Shown: positions 23,507 to 33,294, numbered from the stretch's first letter. The stretch is DNA of 64,000 nucleotides from Bacillota bacterium (GCA_017417045.1 JAFPZZ010000004.1:3030-67029), one strand, 5' to 3'. Numbers and translations: made by a program. The notes: a model not told the origin generated them from the letters alone.

Positions 23507-25303
23507 ATGGCAGAAGAAAACAAAGTCCTCCTTTCGCTCAAGGACGTAGAGGTAAAATTCAACGTAAGAGGCAGGATACTCACGGCAATACGCAGGGTAT
23601 CCCTGGATATCTATGAGCACGAGTCGCTGGCTATAGTAGGCGAGTCCGGCTCCGGCAAGTCCGTGCTTACGAAGACCTTCGCCGGAATGCTCGATTCCAA
23701 CGGCTTTATCTCGAACGGCACCATTATCTTCTCCGACGACGACATATCCAGGACGGATATAGAGCTCACCCCGGAGAACAAAAAGCTCCTGGAGCAGCTG
23801 ACCGCCATGGTCAACAAGCACTCCAGGCTCGAGCGCGGCGCCGCGAGCTACAACGCCTATCTTGCGAAAAAGGAAGAGATAACTCACGCTCAGACCCTGA
23901 CGCTCGACGAGGAAGCCGATTACAGCGCGCGCATCAAAAAGCTCAGCGACCGCATAGTCGATCTGAAGAACTACACGCAGATCCTCGACAGGAAGAACGC
24001 CGAGGACCAGGCTCAGCTGCTAAAATACAACGAAGAGATCCAGCAGCTGACTGCCGAGAGGGACGCACTGTCCGCCGAGATGGAGAGCGTCAAGAAGTCG
24101 CGCATGGAGAGCTACAAGGCCGACGCGGCGAGAGTAGCCGCAGACAAGGAGGCCCTCGACGCGCTGCTTGCGAAGAGCAAGGCCGAGGTAGAGACGGCGG
24201 ACGAGCCGAACAATCCCGAGGGGCTCTCGGACGAGGTCATCGCGCGCAACGACGTCATCGCCAAGGAGATACTGCTCTCCATCGGCCGCTACAGCGAGCG
24301 CGAGAAGGCTAAATTCATAAAGGACCTCGACAAGGCTTTCGAGGAGGCCTGCAGGATAGGCCTCGATCTCAGCGACCCCGAGGTCAGAAACAAGATATTC
24401 GACGTAGCCACCTTCAGGGTGGAATACCGCTCCTACGAGGAGGAGACCAACAAGCTCCACGGCTACGCCATCATAGACTGCGCAAAGGTAAAGCGCGCCG
24501 AAGACTGGCAGCTCATCAGGGGACGCCGCATTGCGACCGTCTTCCAGGACCCCATGACCTCGCTCAACCCCGTCATAACGATAGGAAAGCAGATCATGAC
24601 GGTCATACTCAAGCACCAGAACGTCTCCCAGGAGGAGGCCAAGGCGAGGACTCTCGACATCATGGCTAAGGTAGGCATACCTGAACCCGAGAAGCGCTTC
24701 GACGACTATCCCTTCCAGTATTCCGGCGGCATGAGGCAGCGCATCGTCATAGCGATAGCGCTCTCCTGCCAACCCAAGATACTGATCTGCGACGAGCCCA
24801 CCACGGCGCTCGACGTTACCATACAGGCGCAGATACTGCAGCTCATCAAGGATCTGCAGAGAGACCTCGGCTTCACGGTCGTATACATCACCCACGACCT
24901 CGGAGTCGTGGCTAACGTAGCCGAGAGGGTAGCGGTGCTCTACGCCGGCCAGATCGTCGAGATAGGCACGGTAGAGGAGATATTCTACGAGCCGAGGCAT
25001 CCCTATACATGGGCGCTGCTCAGCTCTCTGCCTCAGCTCCACGACAGGGGGACGGACCTCTTCTCGATACCGGGAACTCCGCCCTCGCTATACAACAAGA
25101 TCGTCGGCGACGCCTTCGCTCCCAGAAACAGCTACGCCATGGCCATAGATCTCAAAGAAGAGCCGCCGATGTTCAAGCTCAGTGAAACGCACTACGCCAA
25201 GACCTGGCTCTGCGATCCCAGGGCGCCCAAGATCGATCCGCCCGCAACGATCCAGAACCTGCACGAGAAGATGGTCAGGTCGTACGTTGATATAGAAAAG
25301 TAG
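23507..25303 (+). CDS. ABC transporter ATP-binding protein (OppD type) carrying a ~250-aa coiled-coil-like insertion
   Basis: Walker A GESGSGKS, signature YSGGMRQR, Walker B ILICDEPT, and an oligopeptide C-terminal extension. The insertion lies between residues ~82 and ~330. Confidence 0.85.
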
Positions 25304-25313
25304 GAGGCAGCGC

Positions 25314-26261
25314 ATGGAAAACAAAGAAAAACGGGTACTGCTCTCCATACAGAACCTCGACGTCGTCTTCGGAAGCGGCAAGAGCGCCTTCAAGGCGGTG
25401 AGCAACGTCAGCTTTGACATCTATAAGGGCGAGACCCTTTCCCTCGTAGGCGAGTCGGGCTCCGGAAAGACCACCATAGGCCGCGCCATAGTCAGGATCA
25501 ATCCCTGCTCGGCCGGTGCGATATATTACGACGGAAAGAGGATATCCGGTAAGCTCTCCAAGGCCGACGACCGCGAAGTCGTGCGCAAGATCCAGATGAT
25601 ATTCCAGGATCCCGCGGCGTCGCTCAACGAGAGGGCCACGATAGAGTACATCATCTCCGAGGGCCTCTACAACTTCCACCTCTTCAAGGACGAGAAGGAC
25701 AGGATGCGCAAGGTCGAGGAGATCACCAAGGCCGTAGGCCTGCTCCCCGAACATCTCACCAGGTATCCGCACGAGTTCTCCGGCGGACAGAGGCAGAGGA
25801 TAGGGCTCGCGAGATCCATAGTCATGGACCCGGAGTTCATAATCGCCGACGAGCCGATCTCGGCGCTGGACGTATCCATCAGGGCGCAGGTGCTGAACCT
25901 CCTCAAGAAATTCCAGCAGGAGAAGGGGCTGACCTATCTGTTCATAGCTCACGACCTCTCGATCGTCAGGTTCATATCCGACAGGATAGTCGTCATATAC
26001 AAGGGCAGGATAATGGAGATCGCGGAGACCGAGGAGCTCTTCGCTCATCCAATGCATCCCTACACGAAGTCCCTGATGTCGGCCATCCCCATCCCGGATC
26101 CCATACTCGAAAAGCAGAAGAAGCTCTTCGTCTATGAGCCGGAGAAGCTGCACGATTATTCCAAGGAGGAGCCCACTCTGCAGGACCTCGGCAACGGCCA
26201 TATGGTCTTCGCGAACAGCGAGGAGCTCGAGAAGTACAAGAAAATTAGGTTCGGCGCCTAG
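25314..26261 (+). CDS. ABC transporter ATP-binding protein (OppF type)
   Basis: Walker A GESGSGKT, signature FSGGQRQR, Walker [10 protein letters not shown]. Confidence 0.9.
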
Positions 26262-26315: not shown

Positions 26316-26324
26316 TGATATAAT
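26316..26324 (+). promoter_or_regulatory. extended -10 element TGaTATAAT upstream of the radical-SAM cassette
   Basis: TGATATAAT read directly, 24 nt upstream of the ATG at 26348, with AAAGGGGG as RBS. Confidence 0.4.
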
Positions 26325-26347
26325 GAGGTCATAAAGGGGGCTGCGCC

Positions 26348-27706
26348 ATGTCAGAGGACAGAGGACCGAAGATCCAGACCATAAGCGTATCTGAAAAGCA
26401 CGTTAAAGCAAGGATAGCTGCGTTTATCCTTGCTTTTATCGTGGCTCTGGCGGCCTTTGTGAACGGCTTTCTTTCCATAGGAAACACCAAAGAGGGCTAC
26501 TACGACCTGATCGCCGAAAAGGACGCCGACGCTCCATACTATGCCGCAGGGATCACTTATACCTGCCTGTTCGAAGGGAGCAGGGGAGAGGTCAGGAGCG
26601 CCGTAAGGGAGGCCGACGCGGCTTATTCACGCGCCCTGTCCTGGGCGTACAAGCTCTGCGATGCGGAAAAGGAATACGACGGCTATATAAACCTCGCGAC
26701 GATAAACAGGGTCATGAGAGAGCAGGCGGAAGAGAAGATCTCGCGCATGCTTAGCTCTCAGGCGCCGCTGTCCTCGGACTTTTCGGGGAAGGATAGTTCT
26801 TCAGGGGAGAAGTCGCTGCAGGACGGGGTAGTCCTCAGCGCGGACGGAGAGAGGGTGAGCTTTGAGCTGGCTGAGGAGCTTTATTCCGCCCTGAGATATG
26901 CCTACAGATATACCGGCCTCGGAGCGGGCTACGACCTCTTCGCGGGGCCTGTCTATTCGGAATGGAAGGATATCATCTATTCCGAGGATCCGCAGCTCTA
27001 CGACCCCTTAAACGATTCCAGCATGGCCGAAAGGCTCGAAATGCTCGCCTCGCTGAGCGCCGACTTCAGCCAGTTCAACCTGAGCTTCAACGACGAGGAT
27101 TACAGCGTCAGCGTTAAGATCCCCACTGCCGTATACATCTCGCTGGACGCTCTTGAGAGCGACGCCCCGCTGATAGACTTCGGGGCGCTCCATGACGCTT
27201 TCATGATCGAGATGTTGCTATCAAGGCTCGATATGTCGGGTCCCTTTGGAAAAGGCGTCGTAAAGACGAACGACGGTCTTGAGCTGGATCTCAGGACAAA
27301 CAGCGTATATCTCGCCCTCGACAGGAGGACGGGCGAGAACGCCGCAGGAGAAGGCGCGTACCGACTGATAAAAAGAACGGACGGCGGCGAGTGGGAGCTG
27401 AGCGGCGTCCACGCTTCGTCTTATGAGATCGCATCCTCCGCTGGCTCGGGGACGCTCAGAAGAGATCTCTTCTTCGACGAGTACAGCGGATCGCCCGGAT
27501 CTTACGTGAGCGAGTACTACGCGCTCTATGAAAAGGAGACGCGCATAGATACGGAGAGCCATGAGCTCGCGTTCATGCTCTTTAAGATGCTGTCGGCGGC
27601 TTCGGCTGCGGACGGGGAGAGCGTTGATTCGAGGCAGCAGGCCCTTAGGAGCCTTGCTCCAAAGTCCGCTTCCTCCAGCCATATCGTGATGGAGTACGCA
27701 CAGTGA
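26348..27706 (+). CDS. membrane-anchored protein of unknown function (single N-terminal TM; faint ApbE-like motifs)
   Basis: TM helix ARIAAFILAFIVALAAFVNGFLSI. Motif-level echoes of ApbE/Ftp (GAGYDLFAGPVYSEW; IDFGALHDAF; LDRRTGE). The stop overlaps the next start (GTGA). Confidence 0.6.
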   Translation: MSEDRGPKIQTISVSEKHVKARIAAFILAFIVALAAFVNGFLSIGNTKEGYYDLIAEKDADAPYYAAGITYTCLFEGSRGEVRSAVREADAAYSRALSWAYKLCDAEKEYDGYINLATINRVMREQAEEKISRMLSSQAPLSSDFSGKDSSSGEKSLQDGVVLSADGERVSFELAEELYSALRYAYRYTGLGAGYDLFAGPVYSEWKDIIYSEDPQLYDPLNDSSMAERLEMLASLSADFSQFNLSFNDEDYSVSVKIPTAVYISLDALESDAPLIDFGALHDAFMIEMLLSRLDMSGPFGKGVVKTNDGLELDLRTNSVYLALDRRTGENAAGEGAYRLIKRTDGGEWELSGVHASSYEIASSAGSGTLRRDLFFDEYSGSPGSYVSEYYALYEKETRIDTESHELAFMLFKMLSAASAADGESVDSRQQALRSLAPKSASSSHIVMEYAQ

Positions 27707-28605
27707 AGCTTTCCACCTTTATTCAGATGTCCCTGTTCGGGATAAAGACCATTATCTTTAAAAAGAAGGACCCCATACTCGGTACCATAATAGTCACGGA
27801 CCGCTGCAACCTTCACTGCAAGCACTGCTCCGTGAACAACATCACTTCCGTCATCTACCCCTATGAGCAGATCAAAGAGGAGATGCGGGAGCTTTTTGAT
27901 ATGGGGATAAGGATACTCTTCTTCTGCGGAGGGGAGACCTTCCTCTGGGAGGACGGAGGCCGCACGCTGCGCGACCTCGTGACAGAGGCCAAGGACATGG
28001 GCTTCTCCATAGTCAACGTGGTGACGAACGGAACCTTTCCTATAGACCTTCCCGAGGCCGACCTCATACTGCTCAGCATGGATGGGGACAAGGCCGCTCA
28101 CGAGGAGATCAGGGGCGAGTGCTACGACCTCATCATCGAAAACATAAGAAAGGCCACGTCGGACAATATCTGCCTGTACATGGCTGTTAATCAGCTTAAC
28201 AAACACACCGTGGAGCCGGTATGCCGCTTGACTGAGGAGAAGAACGTCAGGGCGGTGTCGTTCAATTTCCACACGCCCTATCCCGGGACGGAATACCTCA
28301 TGCTGAGCAGGGAGGATAAGGCCGAGGTCTGCGCGCTGATAGGACGCATGAAGGACGAGGGCATACCGGTCTTCAACCTTAAGTCCGCGTTCTCTTATAT
28401 CGTAGACCAGAGCTTCCCCACGCCCTGCTGGCAGTGCGTGGTCATGGAGAACGGAAAGCTCAGCGTCTGCGGACGCTGCATAGACGTCCCGGGCTGCTGC
28501 GAGCACTGCGGATACTTTTTCGCGGCGGAATACACCCTGCTCTTCAGCGGAAAGCCGAATATCATATTCGAGATGCTCAGGACTTATCCGGGGTTCATAG
28601 GATGA
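27703..28605 (+). CDS. radical SAM enzyme with a C-terminal Cys-rich auxiliary-cluster region
   Basis: CNLHCKHC (CX3CX2C) near the N-terminus. C-terminal CWQC-x10-CGRC-x6-CCEHCGY. GTG start overlaps the upstream stop (alternative ATG at 27727). Confidence 0.8.
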   Translation: MKLSTFIQMSLFGIKTIIFKKKDPILGTIIVTDRCNLHCKHCSVNNITSVIYPYEQIKEEMRELFDMGIRILFFCGGETFLWEDGGRTLRDLVTEAKDMGFSIVNVVTNGTFPIDLPEADLILLSMDGDKAAHEEIRGECYDLIIENIRKATSDNICLYMAVNQLNKHTVEPVCRLTEEKNVRAVSFNFHTPYPGTEYLMLSREDKAEVCALIGRMKDEGIPVFNLKSAFSYIVDQSFPTPCWQCVVMENGKLSVCGRCIDVPGCCEHCGYFFAAEYTLLFSGKPNIIFEMLRTYPGFIG

Positions 28606-29966
28606 GCGCGCTGACTTCACTTGCCAGGATGTGGCTGACGAGGTCGGTAAAGCCCTTTGTCTTCACGGACGACTGCGACGAGGCCCTGGATTACGGCGGG
28701 ATAGGGGACCTCGGTCTCTACGTCCACATACCTTTTTGCAGGAGCATATGCAGCTTCTGCCCTTACTGCAAGAGGCTCTACGATCCTGAGCTCATGGACC
28801 GCTATATCGACGCGCTCATAGAGGAGATAAGGCTGGTCGGCGACATGCGGGGCAGCGGGAGCATGCGGCTGCAGGCGGATGGCGGCGTATCCGGTCCCTG
28901 CGGAGGCTCCGATCCCTGCGGCGGCTCCGGTCCCTGCGGAGGCTCCGGTCCCTGCGGCGGTTCCAGGATGCCAGCCGGCAGCCTTTACTTCGGCGGAGGT
29001 TCGCCTGCCCTTGCAGCTGACAGGCTGGGAGAGATCACGGCGGAGCTCGGAAAGCACTTCGATATACGGGGCGGCATAGGGGTCGAGCTCCATCCGGAGG
29101 ACGTAAACGCGCGCACCCTGGACCTGCTCGAGGAAGCCGGGGTAGACCGCGTGAGCATAGGCATACAGTCCTTTCAGGATAAATATATAGACATACTCGG
29201 GCGCAGGGGCTGCGACCCTGAAGCCATCGCCGGGGAACTGTCCGGAAGGAGCTTTAAAACGGTCTCGATGGACCTCATATTCGCGCTTCCGGGGCAGGCC
29301 GAAGATGATATCTGCAGGGACGTAGACACGGCTTTCGCGAGCGGCGCGAACCATGCGGCCATATATCCCTTCATAGATTTCGATTTCACTCCCGGGAACA
29401 TCCCCGCCATGGGGAGGAAGGAGAAGCGCAGGCTGCTAAGCGCCATATGCGCCCACGCCCGGGCGAAGGGCCTCAGGAGGGATTCGATATGGACCTTTTC
29501 CTCGGAGGAGGACGCGCGCTATTCCTCCATGACGAGGGACGATTACCTGGGCTTCGGCTGCTCGGCCGTCACACTGCTTCCTAAGAGCTTTAAGATCAAC
29601 ACCTTCGACGTGGAGAGCTATATAGAGCGCGTGTCGCAGGGAAGGCTCGCCAGCTCGCTGACCATAAGGTTCACAGAGCGCCAGCGCATGGTCTACTGGC
29701 TCTTCTGGAGGATGTACGGGATGAGCTTCGAGGCTTCGGATTTCAGGGTTTTCTTCGGGAAGGAGCTTGAAAAAGAATACGGGCTGGAGTTTTGGACAGC
29801 CGAAAAGCTCGGCTTCGTAAGGCGCGATGGGAGCCGCTGGCAGCTCACCGACGACGGGGCTTTCTGGTACCACCACTTCGAGAATTATTACACCCTGTCG
29901 TACATAGACAGGATGTGGGGACTTATGAAGGAAGAGGCGTTTCCGAAGAAGATGGTCCTTGGATAA
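28602..29966 (+). CDS. HemN-like (class C) radical SAM protein with an internal Cys/Gly/Pro hexapeptide repeat
   Basis: YVHIPFCRSICSFCPYC, YFGGGSP and IGIQSF motifs, plus a HemN_C-like tail. ATGA overlap with the upstream gene. Confidence 0.8.
   Translation: MSALTSLARMWLTRSVKPFVFTDDCDEALDYGGIGDLGLYVHIPFCRSICSFCPYCKRLYDPELMDRYIDALIEEIRLVGDMRGSGSMRLQADGGVSGPCGGSDPCGGSGPCGGSGPCGGSRMPAGSLYFGGGSPALAADRLGEITAELGKHFDIRGGIGVELHPEDVNARTLDLLEEAGVDRVSIGIQSFQDKYIDILGRRGCDPEAIAGELSGRSFKTVSMDLIFALPGQAEDDICRDVDTAFASGANHAAIYPFIDFDFTPGNIPAMGRKEKRRLLSAICAHARAKGLRRDSIWTFSSEEDARYSSMTRDDYLGFGCSAVTLLPKSFKINTFDVESYIERVSQGRLASSLTIRFTERQRMVYWLFWRMYGMSFEASDFRVFFGKELEKEYGLEFWTAEKLGFVRRDGSRWQLTDDGAFWYHHFENYYTLSYIDRMWGLMKEEAFPKKMVLG
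28884..28964 (+). repeat. 18-bp in-frame tandem repeat, ~4.5 copies, encoding (G-G/V-S-G/D-P-C)n
   Basis: Units at 28884, 28902, 28920 and 28938, plus a half unit. Consensus GGMGGCTCCGGTCCCTGC. Confidence 0.9.
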
Positions 29967-30139: not shown

Positions 30140-30532
30140 ATGGATGATTACAAAACCTATACTATCGTAAAGGGCGATAACCTCACCAAGATCGCCAGGG
30201 CATTCGGAACCACCGTCGATGAGCTCGTAAAGCTCAACGGTATCGAGAACCCCAACCTCATCTATGCCGGCGCTGAGCTGAAGATCCCGTTCACCGCGGA
30301 AGAGCTCGCCGCTAAGGCTGAGGAAGCTGCCAAGGCTGCCGCCGAAGCTGCCAAGAAGGAAGCCGAGGAGAGAATGGCTGCCGCTGCCGCCAGACTCGCG
30401 GAAGAGAAGAAGGCCGCTGAGGAAGCTGCCGCTCAGGCTGCCGCAAAGGTAGAGGAGACCGTAGAGGAAGTCAAGGAAGAAGCCACCGAGAAGAAGGGAC
30501 TCTTCGCCAGCCTCTTCAAGAAGAAGAGCTAA
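30140..30532 (+). CDS. LysM domain protein with an Ala/Glu/Lys-rich tail
   Basis: YTIVKGDNLTKIARAFGTTVDELVKLNGIENPNLIYAGAELKIP is a canonical LysM. GGAGG RBS. Confidence 0.85.
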   Translation: MDDYKTYTIVKGDNLTKIARAFGTTVDELVKLNGIENPNLIYAGAELKIPFTAEELAAKAEEAAKAAAEAAKKEAEERMAAAAARLAEEKKAAEEAAAQAAAKVEETVEEVKEEATEKKGLFASLFKKKS

Positions 30533-30565
30533 ATTGCCCTCTGACAGAACTTGCGAAAGTATAAC

Positions 30566-30600
30566 GAGAGCGTCCGCATTGCTGACGCTCTCTTCCCATT
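30566..30600 (+). terminator. intrinsic terminator of the LysM gene
   Basis: GAGAGCGTC-N9-GACGCTCTC followed by TTCCCATT. Confidence 0.6.
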
Positions 30601-30605
30601 GAAAG

Positions 30606-30629
30606 GGCCCCGCATTCCTGTGCGGGGCC
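30606..30629. terminator. GC-rich hairpin between convergent genes
   Basis: GGCCCCGCA-TTCCTG-TGCGGGGCC, a perfect 9-bp stem. Confidence 0.55.
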
Positions 30630-30635
30630 GTTATC

Positions 30636-30697
30636 GTTATTAGTAGCCGGCGCGTTGTTATTGCCAGCCAGCTCTGTTATTACCAGTCCACTCCCCC
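30636..30697. repeat. three degenerate ~21-bp tandem units covering the stop codon and 3' flank of the DUF3048 gene
   Basis: GTTATTAGTAGCCGGCGC / GTTATTGCCAGCCAGCTC / GTTATTACCAGTCCACTC. The last unit contains the real stop (TTA at 30680-30682) and the final codons. Confidence 0.55.
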
Positions 30698-31822
30698 GGT
30701 GTAGGAGCTCGCGCAGCAGACGTAGCTGTTGCCGGGGCAGAGGAGGAGGTCGCCGCCTTCAGGCGTCTTGAAGAAGAGCCCTGAGGACGAGCACTCCCAG
30801 GTGAATTCTTCGGCTACGGTGTCGTGGAAGTATACTCCGTTTCCGCTGCTCATGTTCGCCCTGAGCCTGCCGTAGGTGTCGCCCGGGACGTTCGAATAGG
30901 CGACGTACATTACGATGACGTTCTTGACGGCGAGCTGCTCGTCGAGGTTTCCGTCCTTGTACTGGATGCCGTATTCGCTGACCAGGTACTTGCCGCTCTC
31001 CTCGTCGTACGCGAAGCTCGTCGTCTTCTGGGGATTCATGATGACGGTGAGATCGGTCACAGAGCTGCTGACTTCGGGAGTTTCCTCGGCTGCGGCTCCG
31101 GTGGCCAGCTCGCCGGGTTTTGCGGGATCAGGCTCTGTTTTCGCAGGGACTTCGTCGGCCTTAGCGTCGTCGTACCTGAACCTCAGAGAGCTCTCGAAGC
31201 CCTCGTTATGATCCGTGCGTATATTTATGCTCGAGACATAGCTTTCGATGAGCTCGCTCGAGGTGAAGAGGCTGTGCTCGTAGCCGACGTTGTTCCTTCT
31301 CCAGCTGTCTCTGTAGAACATCTTGCCGCTGGCTCCTCCGTTGACGCCGTCAAGGTGAGTCACGCCGCGGTTGTCCATGTCGGTATAGGCCTGGTCGCTC
31401 CCTCCCGCGTGTATGTATATCGCGTCGAAGGCGAGGGCGATGTCCAGATAGTAGGGCCTCGCGCTGCGGACGGATCCTATCGGGCCAATGTCGCTGATAT
31501 CCTGGAAGAGCGCCACCATCCTCGTGATATTGCCCTCAACGACCATCTCGAAGATCATGTCGGCCTTTGAGATGCCGTGCTGAGGAAGGGCCTTGTAGAG
31601 GTTGTTGAGCATCACCGCGTACGGTCTCGTCCCTCCCACGTCTTCTTCCAGCAGCTCACCCGTGAGCGGATGAGGGTATCTTATCGGCTCGGGTTCCGGT
31701 TCGGGCTCAGGCTCGGGTTCGAGCTCGGGCTCCGGTTCCGGCTCGGGAGAGGGTTTCTCGCCGCAGGCCGCGAGCGTGAAGATCAGGGCTATCGCAAGCA
31801 GCAATGCCAGTATTTTTTTCAA
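30680..31822 (-). CDS. DUF3048 (YerB-like) lipoprotein
   Basis: Lipobox LTLAAC, a (EP)n linker, then PLTGE..RPYAVMLNN..ALPQHGISKADMIFE..VEGNITRMVALFQD, typical of DUF3048. Confidence 0.85.
   Translation of the reverse strand: MKKILALLLAIALIFTLAACGEKPSPEPEPEPELEPEPEPEPEPEPIRYPHPLTGELLEEDVGGTRPYAVMLNNLYKALPQHGISKADMIFEMVVEGNITRMVALFQDISDIGPIGSVRSARPYYLDIALAFDAIYIHAGGSDQAYTDMDNRGVTHLDGVNGGASGKMFYRDSWRRNNVGYEHSLFTSSELIESYVSSINIRTDHNEGFESSLRFRYDDAKADEVPAKTEPDPAKPGELATGAAAEETPEVSSSVTDLTVIMNPQKTTSFAYDEESGKYLVSEYGIQYKDGNLDEQLAVKNVIVMYVAYSNVPGDTYGRLRANMSSGNGVYFHDTVAEEFTWECSSSGLFFKTPEGGDLLLCPGNSYVCCASSYTGGVDW
31685..31747 (-). repeat. hexanucleotide-type low-complexity repeat encoding the PEPEPEPELEPEPEPEPEPEP linker
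   Basis: Read directly; GGYTCS-type units. Confidence 0.8.
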
Positions 31823-31892
31823 TTTTTAATTCCTCCGCGTATGCTTTTTCTCGGAAGAGTGCTATAGCAGCAGCACCTTTTATCGATTTTTA

Positions 31893-32555
31893 TTATAGCA
31901 TATCGCAGATGTATTCTTCAACGGCAAGACGGAGCAGGCTGTGGCCTTCTTCGCTCGGATGCAGCCCGTCGGCGCATATGAGATCTTCCCAGCCGGCTCT
32001 TTTCGCGGCCGCCCTGAGGTCGAGAACGGGGCAGCCGTTTCTTTCGGCGACCTTTCTGGCTATGTCGCTGTAGTCCTTCTGCCATAGTGCGAGCCTTCCC
32101 CTATCCTTGAGCCAGAGCATTATGGCGCTGCGGTCGAGTCCTCTCGAAAGGAAATCGAAGAATCTGGTCGATGATATTGGGGGAAGGGTAGAAACTATGA
32201 CGCAGGCTCCGGCCGACTTCAGCTTTTTGACGGCTTCATCGTACAGCGTCTCGAAGCGCTGCGGCGGTACCGCGCAGCCGTGCTCCTCAAAGGGGCGCTC
32301 CGCGATCTCTGCCCAGTTGAAATTGCAGTCGTTGCCGCCGAATTCAAGTATGGCGGCAGTACCGGGGCTGATCTGCGGAAGGCATCTTTCTATGAAGTCC
32401 AGCCCCTGCTCTATAGTCGAGCCCATCCTGGCTCTGTTTATTATCTCGGCTCCTGCAGCGCTCAGCTTCTCCCTGCAGAGCCTGTACCGGTCTTCCTCCT
32501 CGTCATACCAGACTCCCTTGAGTATGGAGTCGCCAAAGATCTGGATCTGCCTCAT
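31893..32555 (-). CDS. SGNH/GDSL-family hydrolase
   Basis: Block I FGDS, block III GGND, block V DGLHPS. Confidence 0.8.
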   Translation of the reverse strand: MRQIQIFGDSILKGVWYDEEEDRYRLCREKLSAAGAEIINRARMGSTIEQGLDFIERCLPQISPGTAAILEFGGNDCNFNWAEIAERPFEEHGCAVPPQRFETLYDEAVKKLKSAGACVIVSTLPPISSTRFFDFLSRGLDRSAIMLWLKDRGRLALWQKDYSDIARKVAERNGCPVLDLRAAAKRAGWEDLICADGLHPSEEGHSLLRLAVEEYICDML

Positions 32556-32718
32556 AACACCCTCCTTTTGGTATTTAGTTTACACGGTTGCTGTAAATTT
32601 ATCATCTAATCTTAAAAATAAGATATAACGATAACGACGATTTGTCAAGCCGCAGCGAAATCAGATGTTGTCATTTATTCTCAATGATGTTATCCTTAAA
32701 ACAAGGAGATGTATAAAC

Positions 32719-33294
32719 ATGACAGACAATACAAAATTACAGGAAATATGTGATAAGCTTTCCCAGCAGAGGCTTCCCAGATGGGATGAACTGCCCGATC
32801 TCGAGCTGTATATGGATCAGCTGCTGTCGCTGATAAGGCGCTATCTGATCGATTATCCCGGCATGGGCGAGAAGGGCCTGACAGCCGCTATGGTCAATAA
32901 CTACGTCAAACTCAAGCTGATACCTGCCCCGCATAAGAAGAAATACGGCAGGGAACATCTCGCGTATCTTCTGATAATCTGCGTGCTCAAGCCTATAATC
33001 CCCATCGCGGACATAGCCGCAATGATAGATGGCAAGATCGAGGAGAACAGCTTCACCGAGCCCGTATACAGGATGAGCGGCGACTCTCCCGTTGAGGTCG
33101 AGCACTGCGAGACCGTATACAACAGCTTCTGCGAGGGCTTCGAGAGCGTCTCAAGGGAGGTTGCCGAGAAGGAGCTCGAGAGCCTTCCGAAGGGCGAGTC
33201 CAGATACTCTGCCATGATGATATCCGCGCTCAAGGCCCAGACCGAGCTCTCAATAGCGCTGGGGCTCATCGAAGAACAGAAGTCGAAGAAGTAG
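32719..33294 (+). CDS. DUF1836 domain protein
   Basis: LPDLELYMDQLLSLI..GLTAAMVNNYVKLKLIPAPHKKKYGREHLAYLLIICVLK matches the DUF1836 core. AAGGAG RBS before the ATG at 32719. Confidence 0.75.
   Translation: MTDNTKLQEICDKLSQQRLPRWDELPDLELYMDQLLSLIRRYLIDYPGMGEKGLTAAMVNNYVKLKLIPAPHKKKYGREHLAYLLIICVLKPIIPIADIAAMIDGKIEENSFTEPVYRMSGDSPVEVEHCETVYNSFCEGFESVSREVAEKELESLPKGESRYSAMMISALKAQTELSIALGLIEEQKSKK

Follow-up and report, generated by a model that had tools for sequence, protein, structure and literature searches.

Three genes that overlap stop to start raise the question of whether their products work together, and the locus studied here poses it for a membrane-anchored protein (gene 1) and two radical S-adenosylmethionine (SAM) enzymes (genes 2 and 3) of a Bacillota bacterium. 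The locus lies in a 64,000-nt stretch of DNA (GCA_017417045.1 JAFPZZ010000004.1:3030-67029), analysed as a whole and called the window below; coordinates are those of the window unless a locus name precedes them. The original prediction, made from this sequence, had taken the three genes for one translationally coupled cassette. Our comparison of loci shows another architecture, very probably a module of two genes, 2 and 3, to which gene 1 is unrelated. Both enzymes belong to known superfamilies, but the mobile two-gene arrangement is undescribed: we found no description of the gene 2-gene 3 pairing in the literature searched. The interest first attached to the locus is justified for genes 2 and 3, not for the role proposed for gene 1.

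Genes 2 and 3 as a two-gene module

We examined 85 loci carrying the pair, 80 from a scan of one genome per GTDB species and five from contig look-ups. Two of the 85 gene 2 loci end at a contig edge, and in all 83 with downstream sequence the very next gene, in the same orientation, is a gene 3 homologue. The gap between the two genes is 7 nt in 41 loci, placing the stop codon within the ribosome-binding site, and varies elsewhere from -1 to 101 nt; in the window it is -4. When the open reading frames (ORFs) of at least 70 aa in the 85 loci were clustered, only the gene 2 and gene 3 families proved common, the next real family being present in 11 loci. Small ORFs lying up to 600 nt from the pair are common to eight loci at most, and no heme transport, heme-binding or reductase gene stands beside the pair in any of them. 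In 14 loci scanned with Rfam, no riboswitch or leader belonged to the pair; the sole matches, a T-box and a thiamine pyrophosphate (TPP) element in one locus each, were unrelated to it. An apparent association with an ABC ATPase (11 loci) was discarded, the cluster being mixed on inspection and the distances variable. Judged by their sequences, genes 2 and 3 form a translationally coupled, self-contained module.

In the window all three genes are on the plus strand. Gene 1 (26348-27706, 452 aa) opens with an ATG 86 nt after the oppF stop at 26261. Gene 2 (27703-28605, 300 aa) starts with a GTG overlapping the TGA of gene 1 (GTGA, 27703-27706); the junction (27691-27706) includes a GGAG ribosome-binding site 8 nt upstream of this GTG, a start consistent with the N-termini of all homologues in the alignment. 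Gene 3 (28602-29966) has its ATG in a second overlap (ATGA, 28602-28605) and encodes 454 aa from there; its mechanical ORF opens earlier, at 28434, and all homologues begin at the position of the 28602 ATG. The ORFs, both overlaps, the 86-nt gap and the motifs quoted in the original prediction were all found in place. Since the three genes overlap stop to start, they are very probably co-transcribed in the window. The extended -10-like match proposed upstream of gene 1, TGATATAAT (26316-26324, plus strand), is present as a pattern match only; a sigma-70 scan gave no full promoter there, and regional counts were not above those of shuffled sequence. Such an element would drive gene 1, with read-through into genes 2 and 3.

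Gene 1 is where the cassette breaks down. Its product has a single strongly hydrophobic segment (residues 23-41), in agreement with the N-terminal transmembrane helix proposed for it, and is probably extracytoplasmic. This, together with the stop-to-start overlaps, is what favours a single cassette in which the anchored gene 1 protein and the two radical SAM enzymes act on an envelope-associated molecule or cofactor. We consider such a cassette very improbable: a gene 1 homologue is present in none of the 85 pair-bearing loci, the pair occurs in dozens of contexts with differing upstream genes, and relatives of gene 1 keep opp or LysM synteny without the pair. Only in the lineage of the window does the pair lie between gene 1 and the LysM gene, and a contig encoding an identical gene 2 protein has the same arrangement. 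The coupling claimed for the locus survives for genes 2 and 3, and the trio is not conserved. The closest gene 1 relative, 36% identical over the pairwise alignment, is in locus L088 (167-1576), where it is followed by LysM, an ICMT-like gene, DUF3048 and a GDSL lipase gene (both on the minus strand) and DUF1836. The ICMT-like gene aside, this is the order found in the window after gene 3 (30140-33294: LysM, DUF3048, GDSL, DUF1836), and L088 has no radical SAM genes. In L173/L174 a gene 1 relative (L173:5001-6323) comes 53 nt after oppB, oppC, oppD and oppF and is followed by a regulator; OppD and OppF measure 598 and 316 aa there versus 598 and 315 aa in the window.

Because its relatives keep opp or LysM synteny without radical SAM genes, we regard gene 1 as a resident, opp-linked gene, and these neighbourhoods suggest that its family functions in connection with the oligopeptide transporter and not with the radical SAM genes. 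A word-indexed search with gene 1 returned the query only; an exhaustive HMMER search gave 349 family representatives of about 400 aa. The protein carries all three of the ApbE-like motifs noticed earlier (IDFGALHDAF and LDRRTGE among them), but has no match in Pfam at E <= 0.1 or in NCBIfam. Pfam ApbE (PF02424) weakly matches 13 of 45 gene 1 relatives (best E 2.7e-7) but not the window protein, and the family profile matched no solved ApbE structure. In sequence, the ApbE echo appears real, if weak, for this divergent family and not for the window protein itself. This previously undescribed family, whose members measure about 400 aa, have a membrane anchor and resemble ApbE distantly, recurs directly after oppBCDF. 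With gene 1 outside the module, its use as a pointer to an envelope-associated substrate loses its basis, and the annotation is corrected accordingly: gene 1 belongs to the opp locus, not to the radical SAM genes.

A further feature of the opp genes concerns OppD (23507-25303), which reaches 598 aa because its Walker A region and signature motif are separated by a long charged insertion, probably a coiled coil. In a related opp locus its place is taken by a gene of equal length (L173:2188-3984).

The two radical SAM proteins

Gene 3 encodes a HemN-fold, class C-type radical SAM protein. Its model (predicted local distance difference test score, pLDDT, 81) was aligned by Foldseek with HemN (1olt) over the whole length (473 columns, E 1.8e-22, template modelling (TM) score 0.68-0.70), and the family profile matched the same structure with E 7.5e-31. 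The protein contains YVHIPFCRSICSFCPYC and YFGGGSP. The family keeps the YxHxPFC motif and CX3CX2CX2C, that is, the cluster cysteines plus a fourth cysteine, and Y40, H42, GGG(T/S)P, E162, Q189, R201 and D224 are invariant across 45 sequences; we take E162, Q189, R201 and D224 to be the equivalents of the second SAM site of HemN. Two further motifs, WLTR...PF near the N-terminus and YTLSYIDKMWG near the C-terminus, are family-specific. Of the HemN-like assignment with a HemN_C tail made previously, the fold and the motifs stand, but Pfam finds only Radical_SAM in gene 3, with no HemN_C at E <= 0.1.

We scored the window protein against the NCBIfam cut-offs beside a typical member, meaning a homologue without the loop insertion described below. 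The two scores were 164 and 188 bits for PRK08629 (NF006385; range 164-197, cut-off 355), 127 and 152 for ChuW/HutW (TIGR04107; cut-off 400), 114 and 147 for STM4012 (NF006067; cut-off 380), 101.5 and 128.5 for HemW (TIGR00539; cut-off 205), and 75 and 118 for HemN (TIGR00538; cut-off 325). By sequence and model, gene 3 is a member of the HemN-like superfamily and of none of its curated families, in keeping with the earlier caution that family membership does not define its function. The loop insertion comprises 36 residues, is absent from most homologues and is modelled with low confidence. It contains an 18-nt in-frame tandem repeat (28882-28964, plus strand; Tandem Repeats Finder) encoding GPCGGS units. 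Locus L090 (1849-3177) encodes a gene 3 protein that is identical except for two fewer units (442 vs 454 aa), and the Cys-rich repeat is therefore length-polymorphic within the species.

Gene 2 carries the radical SAM motif CNLHCKHC (CX3CX2C), a GGE motif and a Cys-rich C-terminus with the seven cysteines noted in the original prediction. Six of its cysteines are invariant in the family (C242, C245, C256, C259, C266 and C269), in the pattern CX2C-X5-G-X4-CX2C-X6-CX2C. Pfam finds only Radical_SAM plus three matches below their cut-offs; neither DUF3463 nor SPASM is detected at E <= 0.1, and the proposed likeness to HpnH/DUF3463 enzymes is not borne out. In NCBIfam the protein scored 50 bits against the PTO1314 family (cut-off 306), 43.8 against Tes (NF045702, residues 22-187; cut-off 450), 42 against NirJ1 (cut-off 650), 40 against AhbC (cut-off 650), 38 against NirJ (cut-off 515) and 34 against archaeal MoaA (cut-off 325); the weak matches to the tetrapyrrole enzymes NirJ1, AhbC and NirJ have E values of 5e-11 to 8e-10. 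Identification of gene 2 as a viperin (pVip) was rejected: prokaryotic viperin gave 32-36 bits (cut-off 180) over residues 31-131 only, and the PADLOC matches were sub-threshold. The predicted structure has a pLDDT of 63.5 and is weak at both cysteine-rich ends, falling below 50 in the C-terminal Cys region; its Foldseek neighbours are GDGT-MAS, SkfB, viperin, SuiB and PqqE (TM 0.44-0.55, query-normalised). On this evidence gene 2 would resemble the SPASM/twitch radical SAM enzymes, with a condensed Cys motif, and fall outside every curated family. It has a conserved hydrophobic N-terminal helix, and there is no true transmembrane segment in either gene 2 or gene 3. From sequence and models, both proteins look catalytically competent.

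Gene 2 homologues number in the thousands. The 119 non-self proteins among the matches listed measure 300-329 aa, mostly exactly 300, and are 70-74% identical to the window protein. One cluster at 90% identity holds 4413 sequences; this cluster, that of protein P0378, mixes 300-aa gene 2 proteins with 417-aa gene 3 proteins, so some member must bridge the two, either as a true fusion or as a frameshifted gene call. No gene 2-gene 3 fusion occurs among the 85 loci inspected. The window copies are much more acidic than their families: the isoelectric point (pI) of gene 2 is 5.3 (family median 7.5) and that of gene 3 is 5.2 (family median 9.1). Adaptation to the host proteome could account for this, as could a change of partner or substrate.

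A metagenome scan seeded with the distant gene 3 of a Clostridium estertheticum plasmid, yielded 80 more diverse loci. Where gene 3 is at least 49% identical to the window protein, gene 2 lies directly upstream in 45 of 49 cases; this falls to 13 of 21 at 39-48% identity and to one of eight below 39%, that is, copies lacking gene 2 become commoner with divergence from the window protein. These copies have no common neighbour. Gene 2 without gene 3 was never found in the 83 informative loci. Because gene 2 never stands alone and gene 3 can, we take gene 3 to be the core catalyst and gene 2 the accessory. The C. estertheticum relative is full length, 37.6% identical, and lacks both the fourth cysteine and gene 2. 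It is carried by L092:10736-13251 (plasmid pCF004-A) and eight related large plasmids, in psychrotolerant Clostridium from faeces and meat, and its neighbour is a divergently transcribed gene for an FAD (flavin adenine dinucleotide)-dependent oxidoreductase with weak similarity to geranylgeranyl reductases. A low-GC subgroup of gene 3 without gene 2 (L167:5995-7248 and L168:5995-7248), 51% identical to the window protein, appears derived and alters residues that are otherwise invariant (LGRK to LQIRK or LQRRK and YPFIDF to YPLIDF, for example).

Horizontal spread of the pair

The gene 2 proteins of the other loci show 69-100% identity (median 83%), with near-identical copies under very different taxonomic labels. 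At the DNA level the similarity (88-99.5%) is limited to about 2.1-3.0 kb around the pair, and the flanks differ. For instance, L076 shares 3002 bp with L064 at 99.5% identity, beyond which the two are unrelated, and 2991 bp with L037 at 90.7%; between L012 and L014 the identity is 95.8% over 2090 bp. The GC content of the L076 pair is 0.41, versus 0.50-0.60 in its flanks. The transferred segment carries a near-consensus promoter about 60 nt upstream of gene 2 (TTGAAA, a spacer of 17-19 nt, TATAAT or TACAAT) and, in some loci, a DUF6061 gene. Downstream it has a NikA/MobC gene, truncated or intact, and an oriT-like hairpin, with a large serine recombinase gene in four loci. We found no terminal inverted repeats on the segment, only a terminator hairpin and the oriT-like hairpin. 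Plasmid and phage collections held no close copy of the pair, and IMG/VR a single contig.

Since the segment is near-identical between unrelated flanks and lies beside mobilisation and recombinase genes, horizontal transfer follows, and these sequences indicate that the pair has spread in this way among gut and rumen anaerobes. Many of the loci are metagenome bins, and the labels Kiritimatiellia, Spirochaetota and Methanocorpusculum may stand for mis-binned mobile DNA; the differing flanks are firmer evidence of transfer than the taxonomic labels. In the window, where the copy is diverged, the G+C content at third codon positions is 0.77 and 0.76 for the two genes and 0.69-0.82 for their neighbours, so the arrival of the pair there was not recent; a loss from the L088 lineage is conceivable but less likely.

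Two sequence features mark the mobile copies. The transferred segment has its left edge marked by a conserved element of about 65 nt (…TAAGACAGTAATT…ACGGCATCTGTC.GACAGGRTTGG), located 430-550 nt ahead of gene 2. This element was seen at L076:5520-5640, L012:5500-5632, L038:5425-5562 and in at least nine other loci, but not in the window; it has no Rfam match, and after it comes a terminator hairpin in which compensatory changes are seen. Possible identities of the element are a small RNA, a recombination boundary or the remaining 3' end of a gene now lost. At the -10 box of the gene 2 promoter lies a conserved palindrome, TGTGTACACA, which overlaps the box or comes immediately after it (L076:5950-5967, L012:5944-5971, L038:5946-5973) and may be a regulator operator or a hairpin of the 5' untranslated region.

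Possible function and comparison with known systems

As a whole, the explanation that we favour, a co-translated two-enzyme module acting on a shared substrate that is possibly a tetrapyrrole, stands in our judgement about as good a chance of being right as of being wrong. Gene 3 would be the core enzyme, with its HemN fold, its cluster cysteines and motifs matching both HemN SAM sites, and would stand nearest to the branch that moves a SAM-derived one-carbon unit onto an sp2 carbon (ChuW/HutW and relatives). Gene 2 would be accessory and carry out a second radical step on the same substrate. For one-carbon transfer by gene 3 with a coupled gene 2 step, we see the balance as even. Since the pair works in diverse hosts without any other conserved gene, its substrate should be one present in any anaerobe or else extracellular. 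Heme and chlorophyll-derived porphyrins are plentiful in the gut, and we would tentatively name a tetrapyrrole such as heme or a diet-derived porphyrin, a guess that will rather fail than hold. In its support, gene 2 weakly matches tetrapyrrole side-chain enzymes, and the nearest characterised relative of gene 3 is ChuW/HutW, which opens heme (PMC10114669).

Several points weigh against this explanation. Neither protein reaches any curated cut-off, and for this reason the chemistry is extrapolated from superfamily membership. The similarities of gene 2 to Tes, SkfB, viperin and NirJ are equally weak and lie mainly in the shared radical SAM core, and its model is only moderate, with the pLDDT given above. 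No locus has a heme transport, heme-binding or reductase gene with the pair. Claims of spread across phyla are soft as well, because bin labels are unreliable for mobile DNA.

Other substrates were weighed on the same evidence. Modification of lipid tails, with Tes- or Mss-like carbon-carbon coupling by gene 2 and methylation or cyclopropanation of unsaturated acyl chains by gene 3, would suit the hydrophobic N-terminal helix of gene 2 and the presence of lipids in every host. Tes/GDGT-MAS is the best solved-structure match of gene 2 by sequence, profile and fold and its second NCBIfam match, and the pair occurs in Butyrivibrio, a genus known for diabolic acids (PMC13159169). We nevertheless find this unlikely: the Tes score is a tenth of its cut-off (44 vs 450 bits), with 22-23% identity and a TM of 0.46, Mss homologues were screened at >= 400 aa (10.1101/2023.10.20.563219) while the gene 2 family has 300 aa, neither protein has a true transmembrane segment, and no lipid genes lie nearby. 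The features of a cargo module (horizontal spread, an own near-consensus promoter, a place beside mobilisation and recombinase genes) would suit nucleic-acid or nucleotide modification on mobile elements, be it resistance by Cfr-like ribosomal RNA methylation or the alteration of DNA or nucleotides in anti-restriction or antiviral defence, and so would the 4413-sequence cluster, the basic gene 3 family (median pI 9.1) and the weak viperin- and MoaA-like matches of gene 2. Yet the viperin match (32-36 bits vs 180) is confined to the radical SAM core and no other PADLOC match was obtained, phage and plasmid collections contain almost no copy of the pair, the window copies are acidic (pI 5.2-5.3), and there is no leader or attenuator of the inducible-resistance type; this reading, too, seems improbable to us.

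That gene 2 crosslinks a ribosomal precursor peptide which gene 3 C-methylates is very unlikely, even though gene 2 resembles SkfB, SuiB, PqqE and AlbA-type maturases, class C methyltransferases act in thiopeptide pathways, and NocN is a PDB match of gene 3. The 600 nt around the pair contain no conserved small ORF: even the best candidates reach no more than eight loci, and among them are truncated mobC-like ORFs and ORFs antisense to the mob region. There is no conserved transporter, protease or immunity gene. With its HemN fold and motifs, gene 3 would fit a heme housekeeping role, as a HemN or HemW orthologue with gene 2 as an unrelated neighbour. This is hardly credible with scores of 75-118 bits for HemN (cut-off 325) and 101-128 for HemW (cut-off 205), no Pfam HemN_C, strict adjacency to gene 2 in 83 loci and a mobile cassette that is not housekeeping-like. 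The joint occurrence expected of the trio was found in none of the 85 loci; gene 3 did not turn out to be a true HemN or HemW and gene 2 did not fall into a characterised family.

The co-translated pair acting on a shared substrate remains the explanation that we prefer. With its own promoter, no need for any other conserved gene and many hosts, the module likely benefits its host directly. It is conceivable, if doubtful, that the pair is a mobile determinant of resistance or detoxification, working under strictly anaerobic conditions, that inactivates a toxic porphyrin, xenobiotic or antibiotic, or alters a drug target. If true, such a determinant would have travelled through the communities of gut and rumen while functional metagenomic screens missed it, since two oxygen-sensitive radical SAM enzymes are not expected to work in aerobic E. 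coli selections. The HemN-like class has repeatedly shown unexpected chemistry (heme ring opening, cyclopropanation, quinone methylation), and we found no curated family, defence-system library or paper that accounts for the pair. The two-gene unit is small enough for synthesis and anaerobic testing.

Of the families studied by experiment, gene 3 scores best against ChuW/HutW, yet with 127-152 bits vs 400. Both share the HemN-type fold, the two SAM sites, a full-length alignment including the C-terminal domain and the gut setting, and gene 3 is 24-26% identical to a plasmid-borne hutW and to two unannotated E. coli matches. In contrast, the pair loci lack chuX/chuY, hutX/hutZ and heme uptake, and the partner is a radical SAM protein rather than a reductase; in this the earlier remark that no pathway genes are adjacent is upheld. 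With HemN (1olt) and HemW, gene 3 has in common the fold, YxHxPFC, the cluster cysteines and the fourth one, GGG(T/S)P and the second SAM-site residues, but it stays below both cut-offs, has terminal motifs of its own, lacks Pfam HemN_C and travels in a mobile pair. Of two uncharacterised HemN-like families, PRK08629 gives the top NCBIfam score and STM4012 the third, after ChuW/HutW, both nearly full length and below cut-off. STM4012 genes presumably lie beside the radical SAM gene STM4011, which would make an analogous pairing; no radical SAM partner stood beside STM4012 in the single locus inspected.

Gene 2 has in common with Tes/GDGT-MAS (7tol), SkfB, PqqE, SuiB and NirJ/Ahb a radical SAM core followed by a C-terminal Cys-rich region resembling CX2C...GX4CX2CX6CX2C, and it finds its best matches in sequence and fold among these enzymes. 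It differs from the SPASM/twitch enzymes in that its Cys motif is condensed and missed by Pfam SPASM, with scores at least tenfold under the cut-offs, and from Tes in size (300 vs 526 aa) and in a target-normalised TM of 0.29-0.30; a Tes is recognised by at least 450 bits and about 490-530 aa, and gene 2 has neither. Mss proteins are defined by E <= 1e-50 to Tmari_0825 or WP_129545148.1 and a length of at least 400 aa (PMC13159169; 10.1101/2023.10.20.563219); in length, which we compared alone, gene 2 with its 300 aa across the family falls below them. The closest parallel to the arrangement as such is C10P/C10Q, from the cyclopropanation of CC-1065 and yatakemycin, where a HemN-like enzyme has a dedicated partner encoded next to it (PMC6050322, PMC10114718). 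There the partner is methyltransferase-like and belongs to a large biosynthetic cluster, whereas here it is a radical SAM protein outside any cluster; what both have in common is a HemN-like enzyme with its partner encoded alongside, as gene 3 has gene 2.

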